The notes: a model not told the origin generated them from the sequence alone. A DNA stretch of 64,000 nucleotides from Candidatus Spechtbacteria bacterium (GCA_016188605.1 JACPHP010000012.1:149-64148), one strand, 5' to 3'. Shown: positions 1,343 through 44,300, counted from the first letter of the stretch. Translations and numbers: made by a program.

Positions 1343-4000
1343 TTATTCGGTTGCCGTGTACACAAATTCTACAGAAGCAATGTCTACAATATCATTCATA
1401 GTGCCGTCCGAACCAATAGATAGGTAGAAGCTTACGCTGTCGTTAGCGGCCAAAGCGGCTATTGTAGGCGCGCAAGTATAAGAAGTTGAGGCCGCTTCAG
1501 AAGCTTCAATAGTACCCACTGCTTGCAACACGGCTCCGTTTACTGACACCGCGCAGTTAATCACTTCGGTAGCGCCCGTATCAGCGTCTTTTACAGCGCG
1601 TACGCGAAACTCGCCACCCGACGCATAATCCGGCCCGATAGTAAACTGGTTACATACTTCAATGCCTTGGTCTTCTGTACCGCCAGTGTCATCAAAGCGA
1701 AGGACAAATCCCAAACCGTCTGTCGCGGAGTTAACGAAGTCAGGCAATGTATCAGCTGTGGTATCAAAACCAATTTGGGTTCCAGCAGCAGTGTCGCACT
1801 CAATGAACGAGAAAAGCGGTATGCTGATACCTCTTGCCACATCAACAATTTCTCCCGCGCTTACAGAGCTTGCGGGAAGCACCAATTCGCCATCACCCGT
1901 GCCGTCTGTGGATAACGTAACAATGGTGCTGTTAGAAGAGCCAACTGTAACTCCAGCGTCCGCGTCAATATTGAAGCGTGTTTCAGCTACTAATCCCCCT
2001 TCCACTACTCCAATGGTGAAGTCACAGTCCTCGGTGCCGTCGCCTGTGTCCGTGCAGTTTGTGGTCATAAGAACATGCGCCATATCGTCCACTGAAGAAT
2101 CGGCATAGTCACGGAAGTCCATTGTGACATTGCCGGTTGCGCCGTTTCGAATGGTTACGTCGTTGTCAACAATCGCAGTGAGCGAAGTAACGTCGGCAGA
2201 ACCGATCACGATGGCGCTAGCTCCTCCTCCATCAAGCGTTAAGGTTCCGGTGCCGCCGGAGCTGACGGTTAAAGCGGCGTCCGCATCATCATCCGTCGCG
2301 GTAAGAATAATTGTTCCTGAATCTGCCCTATTAAAGGTTACTGTGCCGGTAGAAAGAATTGTATTTGCGCCAATGCTTAAGGCAGATACAATATCCGTGT
2401 CCGACACATCAACACCAATAGCAGTTTCAGTTCCAGCTCCATTGGTAACAGTTCCTGCGGTAATAAGAATACCGTAAGCAGTGACGGTATCACCCGTACC
2501 AGCAGTAATGGCTGGCATGGTGATATTTGCTCCCCTCCAGTCAATGACTGCGGCGCCCACGGCACCAGACGTAGTGGCAAGCGTGCCAGCCGCGGAAATG
2601 TTGTAACCGGTGTATGTAGTGGTGGCAGTTGTATCGGTTGCTGTAAGAATAGGAGTCTGAATATTCACGCCCGTAACATCCTGATCGGTTGCGGCAGTAA
2701 CATTTGTATTGAGATTTAAATCAAGCCCTGTTAAATCGCCAGTTTGAGTTTCTGCCGTGTAGTCAACGTCAATCAGGGTTCCTGATACGTTGTGCACGTT
2801 CAAATCAAGTACGGCTGCAGTTCCATCGTCAATGCTAGTTACGGTGAAAGGCGCGGTGGCAACCGTCTGCTGTGTCAATGTAACGGCGCCGGTGGTGGCC
2901 GCTACATCAAAATAAGTCCCGTTGAGAGCGTTATCCCCAAATGCCAAAGCATCTCCTATTTGCGCGTCAGAAACATCTATTGCCGTTGTAATAGCTCCTG
3001 CCGCTGTATTGACAAAAATTCCGGTTGTAACCGCAGTATCTGTGTCAGTGTTATTTAGATACAACAAAGCATCTGCCGCGGCTACGCCATCAACATTATC
3101 AATATAAAGACCATAAACAGTATCTGCTGAAGACGTTGAGTTGTCGTCAATTGAAATCAGTTGGCCATAAATCGTGTCAGCGCCTGTTGCGTTATCGGAG
3201 TTTATAAGCGTCAAGCGAAGCCCCGCGGAGCTCGCGCTATCTACGAGAGTGTGAGAAATAACTAATCCATCGATACCGTCGCTAGCCGCTGGGACATCGG
3301 AAGTAATAGTAAGCGCATCCGCCGTTGTCGCCGCAGCGCCCAAACTTGCGCCATCAGCGGCGTCAAGCGTCCAGTCAAAGTCGCCTCCATTACCTGTAAA
3401 ATCACCATTACTAACAAGAATGTCGCCCGCGGTAAGCACCAGCGCGTCGGTGCCATCAGCCGAGCCGGCAATTGTTGTTAAGCCGTCCTCGCCGACAGAA
3501 AACACAGTTGCGTCGGCAGTTTCATCCCATGCCTTCAAATAATGACCGCCGGCCAATGTAGCTTCGGTAGCTGATAGGTGAAGAAGGGTTCCCGTAGTAA
3601 GTCCGTCGCCTATAAAGGCAACAACACCATTGTCGGCTGCTGCGCCAAAGGTGGTTGCTGTGGCGTTAGTTACAGTTAACGTCGCGGCCTCGTCAGCATC
3701 GGTCAGAGCCAATGAACCATCTGAAACAACGAGGTCTCCGGCCGTCACTGTAAAGACGGTGGTAGCCGCCGTGCCGGGAAGAGTAACAGCGCCGGCCAAG
3801 TTGGAGATGCCATCCACTTCAAACGTTCCGGTTACATATAAGTCGTCGCCGTTAAGCGGTAAACCCGGTGTGCCTCCACCAACTTGGATATTCTGGTTGA
3901 AGGTGATCGCGGCTTGCGCCAATCCCCCGACAAGAAATACTGTTACCAAGACGCTTGCCGCAGCACTCCATATTTGTCTTTTTTTAAGTATATCTATCAT
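1343..4000 (-). CDS. Large secreted Thr/Ala/Gly-rich cell-surface protein (885 aa).
   Basis: It has an N-terminal signal peptide (MIDILKKRQIWSAAASVLVTVFLVGGLAQA) and a low-complexity beta-rich TAG composition. Confidence 0.7.
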   Translation of the reverse strand: MIDILKKRQIWSAAASVLVTVFLVGGLAQAAITFNQNIQVGGGTPGLPLNGDDLYVTGTFEVDGISNLAGAVTLPGTAATTVFTVTAGDLVVSDGSLALTDADEAATLTVTNATATTFGAAADNGVVAFIGDGLTTGTLLHLSATEATLAGGHYLKAWDETADATVFSVGEDGLTTIAGSADGTDALVLTAGDILVSNGDFTGNGGDFDWTLDAADGASLGAAATTADALTITSDVPAASDGIDGLVISHTLVDSASSAGLRLTLINSDNATGADTIYGQLISIDDNSTSSADTVYGLYIDNVDGVAAADALLYLNNTDTDTAVTTGIFVNTAAGAITTAIDVSDAQIGDALAFGDNALNGTYFDVAATTGAVTLTQQTVATAPFTVTSIDDGTAAVLDLNVHNVSGTLIDVDYTAETQTGDLTGLDLNLNTNVTAATDQDVTGVNIQTPILTATDTTATTTYTGYNISAAGTLATTSGAVGAAVIDWRGANITMPAITAGTGDTVTAYGILITAGTVTNGAGTETAIGVDVSDTDIVSALSIGANTILSTGTVTFNRADSGTIILTATDDDADAALTVSSGGTGTLTLDGGGASAIVIGSADVTSLTAIVDNDVTIRNGATGNVTMDFRDYADSSVDDMAHVLMTTNCTDTGDGTEDCDFTIGVVEGGLVAETRFNIDADAGVTVGSSNSTIVTLSTDGTGDGELVLPASSVSAGEIVDVARGISIPLFSFIECDTAAGTQIGFDTTADTLPDFVNSATDGLGFVLRFDDTGGTEDQGIEVCNQFTIGPDYASGGEFRVRAVKDADTGATEVINCAVSVNGAVLQAVGTIEASEAASTSYTCAPTIAALAANDSVSFYLSIGSDGTMNDIVDIASVEFVYTATE

Positions 4001-5097: not shown

Positions 5098-8000
5098 CTA
5101 GGAAGGATTGATGAACGCGCCACCGGTGATTGGCAAGCCCTTGATAAGGCCTACGAGAACATCGGTTGACACATCATCGTCCCAAGAGACATCTGCCGTA
5201 CCGTTAGCAATTGACAACTGGAAGCTGTCGCCATCGGTTTCGTAGTCAGCTAGGTTTGTCTCAACACGGAATTCCATAGTGGTTCCGGCTGGGATCGTAA
5301 CGCTCATATTGGTAACATCTGGTGTTTCACCGGCATCCAACACATTGTCTGCCGCTGTAACCGTACCAACCGAAGCGCCTGTATCCTGCCTATAAACCGT
5401 GATTCCTTGGTTTGTAGCATCATCATCTCCCTGGAAACCAGTCACGGTAAAGCGAAGGTTGTGGTTAGTTCCATCAAAGATGACATCACCTCCCGCGTCA
5501 GCGGTGATGGTGAAGCGCAAGGTCGTCATGGTTACCGGGCTAAGGGTGCCAGAAGGCGAAGCGCCGCCAGAGCAGGTTGCCGTACAGAGAGCAAATGTAG
5601 GTACTGTGCGGAATAAATACTGCGCGTTACCAATCGCCATGCTGTATACCTGGGTAGTAGCATTATCCGCGTGAACCGCGGCTGTGGTGCCGTTTACACC
5701 ACGGACAACTGTGTAGGTGTCTTCGGTTGCGCCATCGGCAATTGCGGTAATCAACTGCTCTTCGGTTCCAATGGTTATAATGGAGCCCACAAGATCGTCG
5801 TCGCCGCTGTCAGCGCCCGAACCGTTGTCCAAAACAAGCGATGTTACAGTGGCATCGGCTGCCTGTCCGGCACCGTCAACCACCAAGGCTGCAACACTCG
5901 CCGCGGTATTTTCGGTCAAGGTAAGGTCGGCTAGTGAACCGGATGAAACACCGTAAGCAACTACGGAGCCCACAAAAAGCTCTGGGGAATCGCCGGATGT
6001 TGCTCCGTTTGATGTGCCCAAAACGTCTGCCTTAATAGTCCATACCTTATTCGCATCCTTTGCGATATCAGTATTGCCTTCGGCAAAAGTAAAGGTAACT
6101 ACACCAGAACTAAAGTATCCATCGGCGCTTACTTTGGTGTCACCATCATAAAGCGCTACGCGAGAAAAGTTGTTATCAGACGCGCCAATTGCCTCGCCGC
6201 TATCTTCCTGGCGAACAACAATTGTGCGAATGTCAATGTCCTCGCTGTTTGCCGTCATCTTAAACTTCGTAAACGCGATGTTTGTCTTGCCCGATGTGCC
6301 AACCGCGGTCATTGCCGCAACTGGAGTTGAAGCATCGCGCACAAAGGTAAGGCTTCCGGCGTTTGCAAGGGTCATAACCTGGCCAGCAATGAGCGCGTTA
6401 TTTGAGCTTGCGCCATATACGGTGGAATTAGATGAAAGGCCGGTAGCCACAATATCTGAACCGCCTGTGGCATTCGCGTCATCCACACCAACTACTGCCA
6501 CTACACTGCCTCCCACGATGACATCGGCCTTCAAATCAAGTACTTTTTGCGAACCCTTGGCAACATCAACTGATATGCCGGTGAAAGCAGCTCGGTCATC
6601 ACCGGATACTTCCGTAAATGAAGCAAGTGACTTTACAACGGTTGTGCCATCATAAAGCTTTACATTGCTGAAGTACGTTTCCGACGCAACGTCTGCATCA
6701 AACGTACCGTCGTTGTCCACGGTAAACGTAATCGCGCTTACCTTCAAATCTTCAGCAGAACCTGCCGTAAGCACCAAGCGGCCAAGCCATGCTTGCGATG
6801 TGCTGTTTACATAGGTGGTTGCTGGAGGGTTAGTGGACATAGAAACAGTCAACGCGCCAACTAATGCCGTCATATTGCTGCCGTTAAGATCAGATGTCGT
6901 AGCAGTGACGCTAGCAGTTGAAGACACACCTGTCGCAACTACATCGGTGGCATTTGTTGTCCACAAAAGTCGCACGCGAGTTGCGCCAGCCCATGCCGTA
7001 TTTGCGTTTGTAGGCACATCCGAAGTTACGGTAAAGGTTTTAGTTGCGTCTTTTGCTATCGTCACATTAACACTGAACGTAGCGCTGGATGTGGGCGAAG
7101 CTACCGTAGAGCCAATCTGTGTCGCGCCGTCCCAGAGCTTTACATTGGTAAAGTCTCCGGATGCGGCGGCAGCGGCATTATCCTGCAAATTAAAGATCAG
7201 GGTGGAAATGGTGATTGCTTCACCATTTGCGGTAAAGTTGAACTTGCCGTACTCGTGGCCGGCTGTGCCGGGAACCACGTTCTTTGCGCCGGGATTAGTC
7301 GGAGCAAGGGCAATGGTTAACGTACCCACCGCGCTATTTGCATTGTGGGTGCGCACTTCGCCAAGGCCGTCAACGCCGGTTACCACCATTGCGTCCATAT
7401 TGGCTGCTGACTGCACGCCATCAAGACGCACTTCATTAAGCGCGATTTCTATTGTGGTATAGCTTGCTGAAGTGGAAACATCTCCGCGAACATGAAGTAC
7501 AACGTTTTTGCTTTTTGGAATGTCAAACACGCCGGTGTCAAGCCCCGGGGCGTCTGCTCCATAGGTTGCAACCGTGCCCACGAAATTCGTGGCTGTGCCA
7601 ACCTGTGTTTCAGTACCCGTCAACTCGTCATACTTATAAAGCGTTATATTGGAAACGTCTGTCGCGCCAGCGCCAGTACCAAGAAGATTCAAACGGATTC
7701 GGGCAACCCTCACATCCTGCGCCACTCCATTGGAGAAGCGAAATGCCGAGAACAGCTGCTGGGTTGTTCCGTTCACAAAGGCCTGCGCGGAAGGGTTGGT
7801 AGCGCCGTTTACCGCCACAGTCGGGATTGTGCCCTGGCCAACGGTCTGGGCAACGCCGCTCTGCGTGGTGTATGTAACACTATCGCCGCCCGTGTCAGTG
7901 GTAATAGTGATAGAACCGCCGGAGTTCGCGCCAAAAGCGACAACGTCCGCGGCTTCAGTAATCTCAAAGTCAATGGTTCTTGTGGTTGTGCCGGTAACAA

Positions 8001-9372
8001 TGCCCGCGGAAATGTCGGCGTATAGATAAATGATCTTTGATACCCCTGCGTTTATGCTATAAGGGGTCGCTGAAAGATCAAATACCGCGCTTCCATTTGC
8101 CATAAGTGATGGAACGGTTGAGCCAAGCTGAACACCATCTGCTTTAAGCATAACGTTTTTAACATCCGTTGAAGATGCGGAACCGGTTTGCGTTACCTTA
8201 ATACTGCGAACGCTCATGCCTTCTGTTTCCGCGTCAAAGGTCCACGAAGCAATTTCTACTGCAGTAGCACCCGCAACAGGAGAACTATCAGCTGGAACTG
8301 TTCGCAAAGTAACATCAAGAGTTCCTACGCCAATACCCGCGATGGTCATAGAATTGCCATATACAGGGAATGTGCCGGAAACCGTTGTGGTTGCTGTAAC
8401 GTCAGTGGCCGCGGCAATGCCCAAACGAGGCGTATTGCCCGTAGTGGCAGTGTTTGTGCCAAGAACGTCAAGCGTTCCAGTGATTGTAAGAATCTTTGTC
8501 GTGCCTGCTGGAACTACCCAGTTAAGGCCGGTAAAGGTTGCTTTGTGTGTGGTGGTGTTAAGCGCTTGCGTGCCACCAAGTTGGGTTGAGCCGTCCCACA
8601 GCTTCAATGCCGTGAAATCATTATCTTCGGCAAGCCCTGCTCGAGAAACTACGAGCGAGCTTATTGTGGTGTTAGCACCACCAACAAACTTTACTTTTGC
8701 AAACACAAAGTCTGACGCCCCACCTGCTACTTGCTGGGCCGCTGGAGTGCTGGAATCAAGAGCTATGGAAACGCCCGTGCCTGCTGGGGTAGTTGGGGTA
8801 GTGGTTGTGGTTGTTCCACCAAGCACATTCGTTGCCCATGTGGACAAACTGTCCGTCGCGGTCAACGCTGTTTGGGTAGGATAAAAGGTTGGGGATGCCT
8901 CTGTGGAATTAATCTTGTAGAGTGAATCCCAATCCAAACCAGCTGATTCAAATTCTGCTGCTGTAACATTGAGGTGACGTCGTTCGCCAGTGTCACTGCC
9001 TGCGGCAGAGGTTACCGCGTAAACCTTCGGGTCCTTTACGGAACCGTCGGCATTTATCTCTAGAACCAAATTGGAATTGGTGTATCCGTCCACTGTTGCC
9101 TGGGTAACGTCCTGAACATTGCTCCACTTCAAGTGTCCGTATGAGTTAAAGATTTCGGGGTTGAGAATCAACCTCTTAAACATCTTTGCTCCTACGAGCT
9201 TGACAATGTAGATGTCATTCGTTCCCGTCGCGCGAATAAGATCGCCATCGGCGATTGTTGCCGCGCTTGCGACAGGGGCAAGATACATTACTCCGGACAT
9301 GGAGATCGCAGTCACTGCCGATGTGAAAAACGACAATGTTGTGCGTAATCGTATCTTAGTTGTTTTACTCAT
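5098..9372 (-). CDS. Giant secreted surface protein (1424 aa) with tandem Ig-like repeats. The recurring motif is F(S/T)xVKL(W/Y)DG(S/T)TQ(I/L)G.
   Basis: It has a signal peptide and a Thr/Gly/Ala-rich sequence with repeated about 100-aa modules. Its N-terminal roughly 120 aa share a module with the C-terminus of the 12577..14322 protease. Confidence 0.75.
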   Translation of the reverse strand: MSKTTKIRLRTTLSFFTSAVTAISMSGVMYLAPVASAATIADGDLIRATGTNDIYIVKLVGAKMFKRLILNPEIFNSYGHLKWSNVQDVTQATVDGYTNSNLVLEINADGSVKDPKVYAVTSAAGSDTGERRHLNVTAAEFESAGLDWDSLYKINSTEASPTFYPTQTALTATDSLSTWATNVLGGTTTTTTPTTPAGTGVSIALDSSTPAAQQVAGGASDFVFAKVKFVGGANTTISSLVVSRAGLAEDNDFTALKLWDGSTQLGGTQALNTTTHKATFTGLNWVVPAGTTKILTITGTLDVLGTNTATTGNTPRLGIAAATDVTATTTVSGTFPVYGNSMTIAGIGVGTLDVTLRTVPADSSPVAGATAVEIASWTFDAETEGMSVRSIKVTQTGSASSTDVKNVMLKADGVQLGSTVPSLMANGSAVFDLSATPYSINAGVSKIIYLYADISAGIVTGTTTRTIDFEITEAADVVAFGANSGGSITITTDTGGDSVTYTTQSGVAQTVGQGTIPTVAVNGATNPSAQAFVNGTTQQLFSAFRFSNGVAQDVRVARIRLNLLGTGAGATDVSNITLYKYDELTGTETQVGTATNFVGTVATYGADAPGLDTGVFDIPKSKNVVLHVRGDVSTSASYTTIEIALNEVRLDGVQSAANMDAMVVTGVDGLGEVRTHNANSAVGTLTIALAPTNPGAKNVVPGTAGHEYGKFNFTANGEAITISTLIFNLQDNAAAAASGDFTNVKLWDGATQIGSTVASPTSSATFSVNVTIAKDATKTFTVTSDVPTNANTAWAGATRVRLLWTTNATDVVATGVSSTASVTATTSDLNGSNMTALVGALTVSMSTNPPATTYVNSTSQAWLGRLVLTAGSAEDLKVSAITFTVDNDGTFDADVASETYFSNVKLYDGTTVVKSLASFTEVSGDDRAAFTGISVDVAKGSQKVLDLKADVIVGGSVVAVVGVDDANATGGSDIVATGLSSNSTVYGASSNNALIAGQVMTLANAGSLTFVRDASTPVAAMTAVGTSGKTNIAFTKFKMTANSEDIDIRTIVVRQEDSGEAIGASDNNFSRVALYDGDTKVSADGYFSSGVVTFTFAEGNTDIAKDANKVWTIKADVLGTSNGATSGDSPELFVGSVVAYGVSSGSLADLTLTENTAASVAALVVDGAGQAADATVTSLVLDNGSGADSGDDDLVGSIITIGTEEQLITAIADGATEDTYTVVRGVNGTTAAVHADNATTQVYSMAIGNAQYLFRTVPTFALCTATCSGGASPSGTLSPVTMTTLRFTITADAGGDVIFDGTNHNLRFTVTGFQGDDDATNQGITVYRQDTGASVGTVTAADNVLDAGETPDVTNMSVTIPAGTTMEFRVETNLADYETDGDSFQLSIANGTADVSWDDDVSTDVLVGLIKGLPITGGAFINPS

Positions 9373-9545: not shown

Positions 9546-9593
9546 CCGGGCGTTTATACGCCACGCAGCTGTGCGTGGCGTATAAACGCCCGG
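9546..9593. repeat. Long near-perfect palindrome (21-bp arms, CCGGGCGTTTATACGCCACGC...).
   Basis: Seen directly. It lies in the 560-bp leader upstream of the giant surface-protein gene. Confidence 0.6.
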
Positions 9594-10712: not shown

Positions 10713-10746
10713 ACAAAACGTTACAATCTACCTACAGGAATCCATA

Positions 10747-10788
10747 GGAGGGTCGGTCCGTCCTGCACGCAGGACGGACCGACCCTCC
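10747..10788. repeat. Hairpin with 19-bp arms (GGAGGGTCGGTCCGTCCTG / CAGGACGGACCGACCCTCC) followed by TTTT. The same arms recur at 12497-12537.
   Basis: Seen directly. Confidence 0.65.
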
Positions 10789-10799
10789 TTTTGGTGTTA

Positions 10800-12303: not shown

Positions 12304-12496
12304 ATAGCAAATAAGTGTCTATGGTCTATGGCTAGCCCGACCGAATACCAAAAAGTCCCCTTCTAATACAAGAGGACTATGAAACTATAGCACGAATACA
12401 GAAAAATACAAGCTTTCTATAACGTAACTGCTCATACCCTCTCATAAATTGGGGGGTGAGCAGTGACTTCTATAACTACTTCAGGACGGACTACTT

Positions 12497-12537
12497 CAGG
12501 ACGGACCGACCCTCCTGCGGAGGGTCGGTCCGTCCTG
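12497..12537. repeat. Second copy of the 19-bp-arm hairpin, preceded by a short direct repeat of CTTCAGGACGGA.
   Basis: Seen directly. Its arms are identical to those at 10747-10788. Confidence 0.65.
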
Positions 12538-12576
12538 AAGACCATATTAAACACATATTAAAACATTAGCTTATCG

Positions 12577-15325: not shown

Positions 15326-15373
15326 GCGAGCGAGGGGGATTTGCGCTTATAAGCGCAAATCCCCCTCGCTCGC
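15326..15373. repeat. Perfect 48-bp palindrome (GCGAGCGAGGGGGATTTGCGCTTA | TAAGCGCAAATCCCCCTCGCTCGC).
   Basis: Seen directly. It lies in the galU upstream region. Other hairpins sit nearby at 15215-15250 and 15403-15426. Confidence 0.7.
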
Positions 15374-30893: not shown

Positions 30894-31088
30894 CCCGTTA
30901 AGATAGGTTGCGTTTCCATGCGCGCATGAAAACGCAACCGTAGATATCGCGCGTAAAATTATTATTCAATACACACCTAGATTTCCCCCGCAGAGTTAAA
31001 AAAATATCTGCTGTCTCTGGCGGGATTCATCTCTTATATTATAAGCAATTAGTACTATCTTGGGTAATTTTAATAATATACTATGCAA

Positions 31089-31115
31089 TTAGCACTCAAA
31101 GGTCAAGAGTGCTAA
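31089..31115. promoter_or_regulatory. Perfect CIRCE operator (TTAGCACTC-N9-GAGTGCTAA; HrcA-type) embedded in a 55-bp perfect palindrome (31075-31129). It lies between the divergent clpB and CDC48-like AAA genes.
   Basis: The sequence is an exact consensus match. The extended palindrome adds TATACT -10-like hexamers on both strands. Confidence 0.75.
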
Positions 31116-31221
31116 TTGCATAGTATATTTAATCCGCTCATCTGATTGACAGTGTCTTTCTTTCTGATAAGCTAGCGGTAGAGTTTTTTAAAAATTATTT
31201 TAAGAAAGATGGGGGTGGAAA

Positions 31222-36361: not shown

Positions 36362-36402
36362 AAAAGCCCCTCATCCTGCAATTGCGGAATGAGGGGCTAA
36401 AA
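36362..36402. terminator. Terminator hairpin (AGCCCCTCAT ... ATGAGGGGCT) after the GC-rich gene.
   Basis: Seen directly. Confidence 0.6.
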
Positions 36403-36410
36403 GTGTTCGA

Positions 36411-36875
36411 TCATGCGGTCCCCTCTCTGTCTGCCATCCTCTGGCAGACGACCTCTGGCGAGGGCATACCCCTCTGCCAGAACTTGTCTTCGTGCCATAG
36501 GCTGACTACGGCACGAAGGAAACTCTCGCCATAGACCGTGCCGATGAATTCGGCAAGAGCCCAGGCGAGCTCTTGGAAGAGGAGCTGAATTCTTTCTCCA
36601 GCAACCTCTTTCCTGAAAGCCCGGGCGAGATCGGCTCGCCCAAGCCTCACGGCGATCCGCGGATTCGCCCCACCCCAGAAGTCGAGCGAAACCGCCGCCC
36701 AATCCACCGCCGCGTCCCTTAAAGACGAGGCGAATAGACCGATGACCCTGCGCTGTTCGCCGTCAGCGCCGTTAGACAGGATCTCCTCAGCGGCCGCAAT
36801 TGCCTCGGCCGCCTCCGTGCCGTCGAATATTGCTTCGACGGCACGGACGATTTCTTGCCCGTTCAACAATTCCAT
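36411..36875 (-). CDS. Hypothetical acidic Ala-rich protein encoded in a GC-rich (about 60-65%) island.
   Basis: The start MELLNGQ is preceded by AGGAGGA 8 nt upstream. Composition contrasts sharply with the roughly 42% GC flanks. No recognisable motif. Confidence 0.45.
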   Translation of the reverse strand: MELLNGQEIVRAVEAIFDGTEAAEAIAAAEEILSNGADGEQRRVIGLFASSLRDAAVDWAAVSLDFWGGANPRIAVRLGRADLARAFRKEVAGERIQLLFQELAWALAEFIGTVYGESFLRAVVSLWHEDKFWQRGMPSPEVVCQRMADREGTA

Positions 36876-37001
36876 CTTCTTCCTCCTTTTCCTTCCTCCT
36901 TCTTCCTCACGCACTCTATACGATACTTATTATATTACCACAAATTATAAAATTATGCAAGCACCTTTACATTAACCAATTTAATTACTATAATTTTCCT
37001 C

Positions 37002-38141: not shown

Positions 38142-38465
38142 TTAAAATAGGTTCCTATACTCCACAGGTCTTCCTTCTGCTAGCGCTTGGTCAATTCCCT
38201 TTTTCATACCCTCAGAAATTCCATAATCGGTGTACACTACTGTTGCTTCCGCCAAGCTTCCCCACGCAAGCCCCGCTTCAATACCAATCTCCCGCTCGTC
38301 GGTGATTTTATCATCAAGCACTCCCGGTTGTGTATACAAAAGATGGCTAGCAAATGGCGCCTCTCCACGCATCAAACAATCATGAAGACATGCTCGCGCG
38401 TATCTTGTATTTCTCTCTATATCACCCGCGTATGGACTTTCAACAATTACTAGCCGCATCTGCAC
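38142..38465 (-). CDS. Hypothetical protein (107 aa).
   Basis: ORF only; no confident family. Confidence 0.35.
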   Translation of the reverse strand: MQMRLVIVESPYAGDIERNTRYARACLHDCLMRGEAPFASHLLYTQPGVLDDKITDEREIGIEAGLAWGSLAEATVVYTDYGISEGMKKGIDQALAEGRPVEYRNLF

Positions 38466-38684: not shown

Positions 38685-38734
38685 GCTTAATGCGTCAGCT
38701 TATTGCTGACGCATATTCATTTTCATACAATATA

Positions 38735-38776
38735 CAACAGAGAGGCGCGGCTAAATAGCCGCGCCTCTCTGTTGTA
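38735..38776. terminator. Strong bidirectional terminator (ACAACAGAGAGGCGCGGC-TAAATA-GCCGCGCCTCTCTGTTGT).
   Basis: Seen directly; 18-bp stem. Confidence 0.7.
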
Positions 38777-44014: not shown

Positions 44015-44300
44015 TTTATATAAGGTAACGCAGCCTGCGGGGCTACGCGATTTTGCCTTTATACAAATTGGTATAAGGTAGCCCAGCCACACAAACGTGT
44101 GCGGCTGGATGATTTTGCTTTTATACAAGGTAGCGCAACCCCGCCACGGTGGGGTTGCGCGATTTCGCTTAACGCAAATAGAATCAAGGGTAAAGTTGTT
44201 AACGCAGCGCTGCTGCGCTGCGCGATTTTGCCTTTATATAATACGGGTAATAACCCAACGTGTCCTACTTAACACGTTGGGTTATTACCCGTATATTAAA
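44015..44300. repeat. Tandem array of five hairpins with different stems (7 to 22 bp). Each is followed by the conserved tail GCGATTTTGCCTTTATA(C/T)AAGGTA.
   Basis: The units start near 44015, 44054, 44108, 44163 and 44226. Unit 5 has a perfect 22-bp stem (TACGGGTAATAACCCAACGTGT ... ACACGTTGGGTTATTACCCGTA). Confidence 0.6.

Follow-up and report, generated by a model that had tools for sequence, protein, structure and literature searches.

Two GC-rich single-gene islands

The 64,000-nucleotide stretch of DNA analysed here (an uncultured, episymbiotic Candidatus Spechtbacteria bacterium, GCA_016188605.1, JACPHP010000012.1:149-64148; hereafter the window) carries two genes, designated A and B, that differ sharply in base composition from the genes on either side of them, and whose coding sequences are tiled with predicted stem-loops. 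Gene A (36411-36875, minus strand, 154 aa) has a GC content of 0.604 and a GC content at third codon positions (GC3) of 0.684. The values for gene B, taken as its longest open reading frame (ORF; 58739-59776, minus strand), are 0.618 and 0.659. The GC content of each of the remaining 46 ORFs in the window falls within 0.336–0.512, and that of the genes directly flanking A and B within 0.43–0.49. An earlier note, made from the sequence alone, had singled out two single-gene islands of more than 60% GC, and at 60.4% and 61.8% they are present as described; the genome value of 42% given alongside them is not reproduced, the mean of the window being 45.2%. The sliding-window GC profile that the note had suggested as a check (computed here with 300-nt windows) reaches 0.60–0.62 inside A, against 0.40–0.48 in its flanks. 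Change points located by likelihood confine the GC-rich block to 36415-36916 at A, corresponding to the coding sequence (CDS) plus its leader, and to 58708-59732 at B, corresponding to the CDS plus its terminator. In both genes GC3 exceeds the value expected from the amino acids encoded (z=5.8 for A and 7.2 for B, with the window's own codon usage as the null), so that the high GC does not merely follow from the content of Ala, Gly and Pro.

Gene A lies between the genes for a class-V aminotransferase (IscS/NifS-like) and MetK, and gene B between those for LepA and MurJ, in agreement with the identities assigned earlier (iscS and metK, lepA and murJ). Expression signals are present at each (Table 1). 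The GGAGG ribosome-binding sites and separate terminators, likewise reported in the earlier note, can be read at both islands, and the stop codon of A sits directly before its terminator. The promoter assignments are consensus matches only, and the candidate at A scores below the threshold of the consensus scanner; the promoters of both islands are AT-rich and native-looking. Three in-frame starts are available to B (ATG at 59758, ATG at 59773 and GTG at 59776), of which the first is the likely one, giving a gene of 339 aa at 58739-59758. It is also the point at which the Logan gene call of B (P0002) begins. The span of 58739-59773 proposed previously stands as far as the island and the existence of that start site are concerned, but 59773 is only one of the three candidates.

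Six independent Logan assemblies (SRR12113384, -385, -419, -422, -428 and -429) contain a gene for the identical A protein, and in 6/6 of them it lies between metK and the aminotransferase gene, on contigs 100% identical to the window. Every contig bearing exact MetK also bears A, and all contigs of the population carry the genes. B is preceded by murJ on one contig (L167), found in 8 samples, and is joined to both murJ and lepA on another (L168), again with 100% identity to the window. The earlier note had allowed for a chimeric assembly; this is effectively excluded by the identical junctions in separate assemblies, which recur at 100% identity in at least six independently assembled runs. 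The islands are real, chromosomally fixed, one-gene expression cassettes set between housekeeping genes.

Table 1. Coding sequences and expression signals of the two islands, and hairpin-rich genes at loci of other genomes
Feature	Position	Strand	Genome	Description
Putative promoter of A	36932-36960	-	window	TTGCAT (36960-36955), 17-nt spacer, TAATAT (36937-36932), TG upstream; weak, read from sequence
Leader of gene A	36876-36916	-	window	purine-only, two GGAGG motifs, the proximal one 6 nt before ATG
CDS of gene A	36411-36875	-	window	154-aa acidic, Ala-rich, all-helical (predicted) orphan; 12 stem-loops
Intrinsic terminator of A	36365-36398	-	window	inverted repeat with 17-nt arms, then TTTTGTATTTGTTT on minus strand
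Promoter-like site of B	59802-59830	-	window	TTGACA, 17-nt spacer, TATACT, upstream TG; 11/12 matches
Leader of gene B	59759-59801	-	window	AAGGAGGG 5 nt before ATG at 59758
CDS of gene B	58739-59758	-	window	339-aa orphan membrane protein; 24 stem-loops
Intrinsic terminator of B	58687-58714	-	window	hairpin and T-run
L023 gene	8668-9243		Saccharibacteria chromosome OZ246412.1	GC 0.56 vs locus 0.37, GC3 0.74; 191-aa signal-peptide protein, no Pfam match
L019 gene	955-1383		Paceibacterota	lipoprotein-like, TTGACA promoter, synonymous-permutation z=-8.1, GC not elevated
L063 gene	125-535		Saccharibacteria	DUF5658 membrane protein, z=-7.7, 16-bp perfect stem, GC not elevated
L062 genes	2800-3085 and 9109-9323		Parcubacteria BM521	small GC-rich genes; 90-aa very basic and 71-aa Cys-rich proteins

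Hairpin tiling of the coding sequences

The density of predicted hairpins in both genes is extreme, and it depends on synonymous sites. Folding with a local span gives 12 consecutive stem-loops over nt 4–447 of the 465-nt CDS of A, and 24 over nt 24–1012 of the 1020 nt of B. Those of A include a perfect 14-bp stem (36814-36847) and stems of 14 pairs (36616-36648) and 13 pairs (36488-36518), while examples in B are found at 58833-58864, 59423-59445 and 59518-59539. Relative to dinucleotide shuffles, the minimum free energy of the A region gives z=-7.9 when the sense strand is folded and z=-7.6 for the antisense strand. Tiles of 200 nt score -6.5 and -1.8 in A, and -3.5, -8.9, -2.2, -9.75 and -2.95 in B, compared with a mean of -0.30 (sd 1.22, minimum -4.0) for 223 tiles of the same length within the other CDSs. 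Synonymous-codon permutation combined with local folding shows the same separation, with z=-6.8 for A and -6.7 for B against a mean of -0.51 (sd 1.40, minimum -4.9) for the other 46 ORFs.

When synonymous codons are permuted, so that protein and codon usage are both unchanged, z is -7.2 for A (0/100 permutations as stable) and -7.7 for B (0/40). Since the native sequences are far more stable than their synonymous permutations, the structure resides in the choice of synonymous codons and does not simply follow from the peptide. Nor is tiling a general property of high GC, because 14 ordinary genes from genomes of 58–70% GC have a mean synonymous-permutation z of only -0.76 (minimum -2.4), and gp20, the Arthrobacter-phage homologue of a domain found in B (see below), has z=-0.36.

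The hairpins share no sequence beyond chance, whether A is compared with B, each gene with itself, or both with the rest of the window (blastn-short). Within the window, the possibility that they are copies of a repeat family is rejected, which includes any likeness to the long GC-rich intergenic palindromes of the window. A count of perfect-stem hairpins is too crude a measure to reveal further cases, and a literature search found no description of hairpin-tiled genes in the candidate phyla radiation (CPR), the library searched being a partial one and the result not proof of novelty.

The excess stability is nearly equal on the two strands, amounting to -71 and -60 kcal/mol in A and to -100 and -107 kcal/mol in B. 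Whichever strand is folded, fewer G-U pairs form than in shuffles. Strand symmetry, together with the small number of G-U pairs, indicates that the stems are true Watson-Crick palindromes. The 5' end of A is predicted to be comparatively open, the mean pairing probability being 0.30 in the leader and 0.30–0.36 across the leader and start region, versus 0.71 in the CDS. In synthetic mRNAs expressed in eukaryotic cells, an open start combined with a structured CDS maximised the functional half-life (PMC6883848), which serves here as an analogy only.

Gene products

A and B are real protein-coding sequences. The chi-square of their period-3 signal (35.6 for A, 87.5 for B) is reached by 0/5000 shuffles and is similar in strength to that of iscS and metK, and G occupies 48–49% of the first codon positions in both. 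The full-length frame of B is open in 4/2000 dinucleotide shuffles. The frame of A is stop-free in 10.5% of such shuffles, which makes it weak coding evidence when taken alone.

With the exception of one domain of B, both proteins are orphans. The protein collections that were searched comprise ~15 billion proteins and include assemblies of the same samples. A has no match in Pfam, NCBIfam, PHROGs, PADLOC or the PDB sequences, nor, by tblastn, in phage genomes or plasmids. A word-indexed search of 5.8 billion protein clusters returned its self-match alone, and a full HMMER pass over 1.84 billion representatives returned A itself plus two spurious tandem-repeat translations. At full length B likewise retrieves only itself from the same protein collections, and its ectodomain has no match when used alone as the query; only a LysM-like domain has relatives. 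The database comparison of the two proteins that the earlier note had proposed thus gives no homologue for A and, for B, phage matches to the LysM-like domain only. Screening against Rfam 15 gave no family at either island, at gathering score or at E<=1, other than chance-level terminator-like matches.

The 154-aa product of A had been described as acidic and Ala-rich, and the computed values (pI 4.7, 17% Ala) are in keeping with this. It is predicted, at low confidence, to be all-helical, and would be a small acidic helical cytoplasmic protein. Single-sequence AlphaFold models of the two proteins are poor, with a predicted local distance difference test score (pLDDT) of 54 for A and 50 for B. 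B begins with a signal peptide, followed by the LysM-like domain (~aa 28–94) and by a linker rich in Pro, Val and Ala that contains an internal repeat; beyond a transmembrane helix comes an acidic tail rich in Val and Thr. The helix (aa 171–217, 47 residues) is modelled with a pLDDT of 77–92 and is predicted to be transmembrane. The previous characterisation of B as a LysM-like membrane protein with Pro/Val/Thr repeats is right about the domain (which is of phage type), the membrane location and the internal repeat, with Pro/Val/Ala prevailing in the linker and Val/Thr in the tail, but the Pfam LysM model (PF01476) remains below its gathering score (E=0.06, 13.8 bits vs 20.9).

The nearest relatives of residues 28–94 of B (~65 aa) are the LysM-like modules of phage proteins annotated as ‘LysM-like peptidoglycan binding proteins’, and the genes for these proteins are located between tape-measure and minor-tail genes. 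The best match is in an unannotated faecal phage, MT835491 (GC 45%), with 47% identity over 62 aa and E=1e-8 (tblastn). A further 68 matches are to Arthrobacter phages, at 40–43% identity (E=2e-4 to 1e-3, tblastn), and PHROG 380 matches B at 1.4e-7. An unusual insertion is common to the phage (...STIEAAAKKHGKSSSDHGHWIWPG...) and B (...ASIETAANGRGLASSDNCHWIFPP...). From these sequence features B is predicted to be a single-pass surface protein in which a stalk rich in Pro, Val and Ala carries a peptidoglycan-binding module of phage type, and it is probably an envelope or host-wall adhesin.

Similar genes in other genomes

A uniform test with a threshold of z<-5 was applied to 25 CPR loci (272 ORFs), 30 non-CPR loci (270 ORFs) and the 48 ORFs of the window. 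Values below the threshold are found for four of the 272 ORFs at CPR loci and for A and B in the window, and for none of the 270 non-CPR ORFs (minimum -4.7). By our own estimate, the chance that all six fall within the CPR set is ~0.03 ((320/590)^6). These figures are suggestive of an enrichment of hairpin-tiled genes in CPR, and are not proof of it.

The L023 gene of Table 1 is part of a cassette (8600-9310) with a perfect TTGACA-17-TATAAT promoter, a Shine-Dalgarno site and its own terminator. Its z-score is -6.6 with dinucleotide shuffles and -5.25 with synonymous permutation; unlike in A and B, the sense strand shows more of the excess structure than the antisense strand (z=-3.7 vs -1.3). 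The two L062 genes, which give weaker signals overall, have GGAGG or GGAG sites, and their GC-rich hairpins reach into the 3' untranslated region (dinucleotide-shuffle z for the region of -5.6 and -7.2).

In phage MT835491.1 (31197-36379; L171), folding z-scores are generally negative over 5 kb and peak at -6.6 and -7.7 immediately downstream of the LysM-like gene. That gene has a synonymous-permutation z of -5.15 at 45% GC.

It is conceivable, though rather doubtful, that hairpin-tiled, strongly expressed single-gene cassettes form an unrecognised class in CPR/Patescibacteria. Such a class would account for ~1–2% of genes, mostly for small secreted, membrane or orphan proteins, the whole CDS being shaped through its synonymous sites by a mechanism acting at the nucleic-acid level, and A and B would be its GC-rich extreme. 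The mechanism could be the production of nuclease-proof, long-lived mRNAs for ribosome-poor cells, a mobility of single-stranded DNA that depends on hairpins, or the generation of palindromes driven by transcription.

Origin of the islands and of their structure

The preferred reading, held tentatively, combines an origin in the phage or mobile gene pool with a structural constraint at the nucleotide level. Each island would be a self-contained, moron-like unit made up of promoter, Shine-Dalgarno leader, ORF and intrinsic terminator, with both ORFs being translated, and the cassettes would most likely have come from the gene pool of phages or mobile elements and not from a cellular host of high GC. 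A constraint on the nucleic acid would tile the whole CDS, by way of synonymous choice, with unrelated and mostly Watson-Crick stem-loops, and the G+C excess would accompany these stems. The tiling would most likely compact the transcript (or an intermediate of single-stranded DNA) and protect it from nucleases, and a long-lived mRNA obtained in this manner could direct the synthesis of much protein. Such, we infer, would be the role of the stems.

A number of observations weigh against this reading. Neither island is accompanied by an integrase, a transposase, a tRNA gene, or flanking direct repeats or a target-site duplication, and no phage genes adjoin either of them; the sole transposase-like gene in the window is 14 kb away. 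There is no close relative in which an empty site could be viewed, the best IscS relatives among GTDB genomes and JGI metagenomes being only 52–54% identical. In these distant IscS-anchored relatives metK is never next to iscS, and homologues of A and B are missing; the one adjacency that they keep is that of iscS and htrA. The strand symmetry of the stems and their scarcity of G-U pairs are explained by palindromes at the DNA level, or by a mutational origin, no less well than by selection on the mRNA; candidate DNA-level causes are hairpins in single-stranded DNA and the template-switch perfection of quasi-palindromes. The initiation region of B is predicted not to be open.

Further points of this kind concern the relation between stems and base composition. 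GC is 0.68 (A) and 0.72 (B) at paired positions and 0.45 and 0.43, equal to the genome background, at unpaired positions, a contrast that is mostly made by the folding algorithm and also appears in shuffles. The GC3 of unpaired positions in B is 0.46, against 0.535 in permutations (2/100), while the corresponding result for A is not significant (25/100). Over the 272 CPR ORFs the correlation between hairpin z and GC excess is weak (r=-0.13), and as the hairpin-tiled L019 and L063 genes are not GC-rich, hairpins alone do not explain the GC. The proposition that the islands are ‘GC-rich because of stems’ is rejected as a full account, since the contrast is largely algorithmic and the correlation across CPR ORFs is so low. 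The structure explains the GC excess partly at best, and hairpin tiling and GC elevation are partly separable.

A serious rival to this reading, if on the whole the less likely one, is that A and B are native, fast-evolving, lineage-specific genes, in which the palindromes and part of the GC arose in place. This could have happened by selection for stable transcripts, or by a template-switch ratchet acting on quasi-palindromes in strongly transcribed, weakly constrained genes. Stems that are almost purely Watson-Crick, strand-symmetric in stability and poorer in G-U pairs than shuffles speak for such an origin, as do hairpins that have no sequence in common, and so are not copies of an element, and the lack of mobility signatures. 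The unpaired third codon positions of B, native-like in GC, and the strong promoter-like sites point in the same direction. Two papers (PMC7202029, PMC3820800) document the template-switch mutation of quasi-palindromes and its stimulation by high transcription. An origin in place leaves unexplained why GC3 is 0.2 higher in A, B and the L023 gene when the hairpin-tiled L019 and L063 genes lack such a rise. It is also at odds with the only recognisable domain of B, which is closest to phage proteins.

The earlier note had favoured recent acquisition from a high-GC donor, possibly the host of an episymbiont. The part of this claim that survives is that a foreign origin of the islands is plausible, in view of their atypical GC3, their autonomous cassettes and the phage-type LysM-like domain. 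In its specific form, by which two ordinary genes would have been received recently from a cellular donor of high GC (such as the episymbiont's host) and would still display its GC, it is improbable. Such a donor would account for GC and GC3 values far above the window background and for a pattern across codon positions (GC1 > GC2 < GC3) typical of genomes with ~58–62% GC, and most phage matches to the domain of B come from phages of high-GC Arthrobacter. However, searches for a donor lineage or for homologues of matching composition returned self-matches only (5.8 billion clusters, 1.84 billion representatives), with no homologue of A and no full-length homologue of B even though assemblies of the same samples were covered. 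Mobility signatures are missing, and ordinary high-GC genes, the Arthrobacter-phage gp20 among them, do not have the hairpin excess. The GC-rich blocks end at the edges of the CDS or terminator, leaving promoters that are AT-rich and native-looking, and the best match to the LysM-like domain comes from a phage with 45% GC.

It is very improbable that the two islands (or A, if not B) represent genes for structured non-coding RNA or arrays of DNA hairpins, with ORFs that are incidental. Their hairpin density and GC enrichment do resemble those of structured RNAs in AT-richer genomes, and A in particular has no homologue, a low pLDDT and a frame that stays open in 10.5% of shuffles. Neither island matches Rfam, however, even at the relaxed cutoff, and both have the strong three-base periodicity and the excess of G at first codon positions (48%) seen in bona fide genes. 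The Shine-Dalgarno sites are correctly spaced, the stop codon of A directly precedes its terminator, and B encodes a signal peptide, a LysM-like domain and a transmembrane helix. Tiling also occurs on real genes, as the membership of the L063 gene in Pfam DUF5658 demonstrates. Finally, the joining of reads from a high-GC organism into the CPR contig, for which the compositional jump is the only argument, has virtually no chance of being correct, given the A junctions in six independent assemblies, both B junctions on L168 and the murJ side on L167, and native-looking promoters, Shine-Dalgarno sites and terminators that are contiguous with the ORFs.

Islands of deviant composition are commonly taken as signs of lateral transfer. 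Here the jump in GC accompanies a tiling that depends on synonymous sites, and as this tiling is absent from ordinary high-GC genes, composition may report a structural or mutational constraint rather than, or besides, the genome of a donor. Should it prove general in CPR, the tiling would point to a kind of nucleic-acid architecture, acting at the level of the gene, that has so far gone undescribed, in organisms whose ribosomes are very few and whose RNA metabolism is minimal. A set of lineage-specific proteins of the surface and the cytoplasm, probably abundant ones, would then become candidates for the interaction between episymbiont and host, with B among them.

Other features of the window

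The gene adjoining metK (38142-38465, 107 aa) encodes a DUF7768 protein, which also matches phage nucleoside 2-deoxyribosyltransferase families (PHROG 355, 2e-24; PHROG 24212, 3e-33). A 178-aa orphan gene at 22464-23000 ranks third in the window for GC3 excess (0.60, z=4.7), and its product has only weak winged-helix (TrmB/MarR) matches. The gene is adjoined by an IS200-like Y1 transposase gene (21560-22303). Two very large ORFs at 1343-4000 (885 aa) and 5098-9372 (1424 aa) have no Pfam match and a moderately raised GC (0.51). The first 1200 nt of the second show an excess of local structure that is third in the window (synonymous-permutation z=-4.9).

Perfect intergenic palindromes at 10746-10789 and 12494-12540 (stems of 20–22 bp) have the core GGACGGACCGACCCTCC in common and form a small REP-like family. 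Unrelated palindromes with stems of 20–23 bp occur at 9546-9593, 15326-15373, 31075-31129, 38733-38776 and 44241-44294, and most of the long intergenic palindromes occupy terminator positions. A different type of repeat is found at lepA, where the arms of a perfect 40-bp inverted repeat (GTCATTCGTTTATTCGTAATCGATTCGCTATTCGTTGATG and its complement, at 58362-58401 and 58607-58646) bracket ~205 bp that hold the 5' end of the gene. One arm overlaps the lepA start and leader, and the second lies within the region coding for the G-domain, where it encodes an extra ...SSTNSESITNKRMTD... stretch. Two Logan contigs terminate at the repeat, which may mark a segment capable of inversion, form a long-range mRNA helix sequestering the start, or cause breaks in assembly. 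Positions 1–19 of another Logan contig (L170) are a Nextera transposase adapter (AGATGTGTATAAGAGACAG), an artefact of untrimmed reads and not biology.

Comparison with known systems

Phage morons (PMC3594210) are autonomous modules of a single gene, each having a promoter and a terminator of its own and a deviant GC. The islands are like them in consisting of a single ORF with its own promoter-like site, a strong ribosome-binding site and an intrinsic terminator, in having a GC content sharply different from that of both neighbours, and, for B, in encoding a domain otherwise found in proteins of the phage tail region. They differ from morons in their position between chromosomal housekeeping genes. 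With no recognisable prophage around them, the islands resemble morons without qualifying as members. Morons are not known to be tiled by hairpins.

The closest likeness at the protein level is to the phage LysM-like proteins (Arthrobacter phages; PHROG 380), to whose C-terminal module residues 28–94 of B are 40–47% identical. Motifs of the form W-G-I/L-A, G-x-G-x-x-W and H-W-I-x-P are common to both, as is the insertion IE(A/T)AA...SSD..HW. Only the domain is held in common, however, and in B it is N-terminal, behind a signal peptide and on a transmembrane anchor. Unlike B, the LysM-like gene of the Arthrobacter phage is without a hairpin excess.

Rickettsia palindromic elements, and the REP/BIME repeats, are GC-rich palindromic mobile elements inside AT-richer genomes. 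The GC clusters of yeast mitochondria are of the same nature (PMC4478555). The hairpins of A and B are similar to all of these in being short GC-rich stem-loops in a lower-GC genome, which in the known elements are sometimes in-frame within genes. In contrast, those elements are multi-copy families, while the 36 hairpins of A and B have no sequence in common within the window and cover whole genes.

The genomes of single-stranded RNA phages are densely structured coding RNAs. Nothing was found in this analysis that links A or B to RNA phages. With such genomes, and with designed mRNAs (PMC6883848), the two genes have in common the local hairpins along the entire CDS and, in the case of A, an open start. 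They differ in being chromosomal DNA genes, and in having Watson-Crick stems that are equal on both strands, as opposed to the G-U-rich helices typically selected in RNA.

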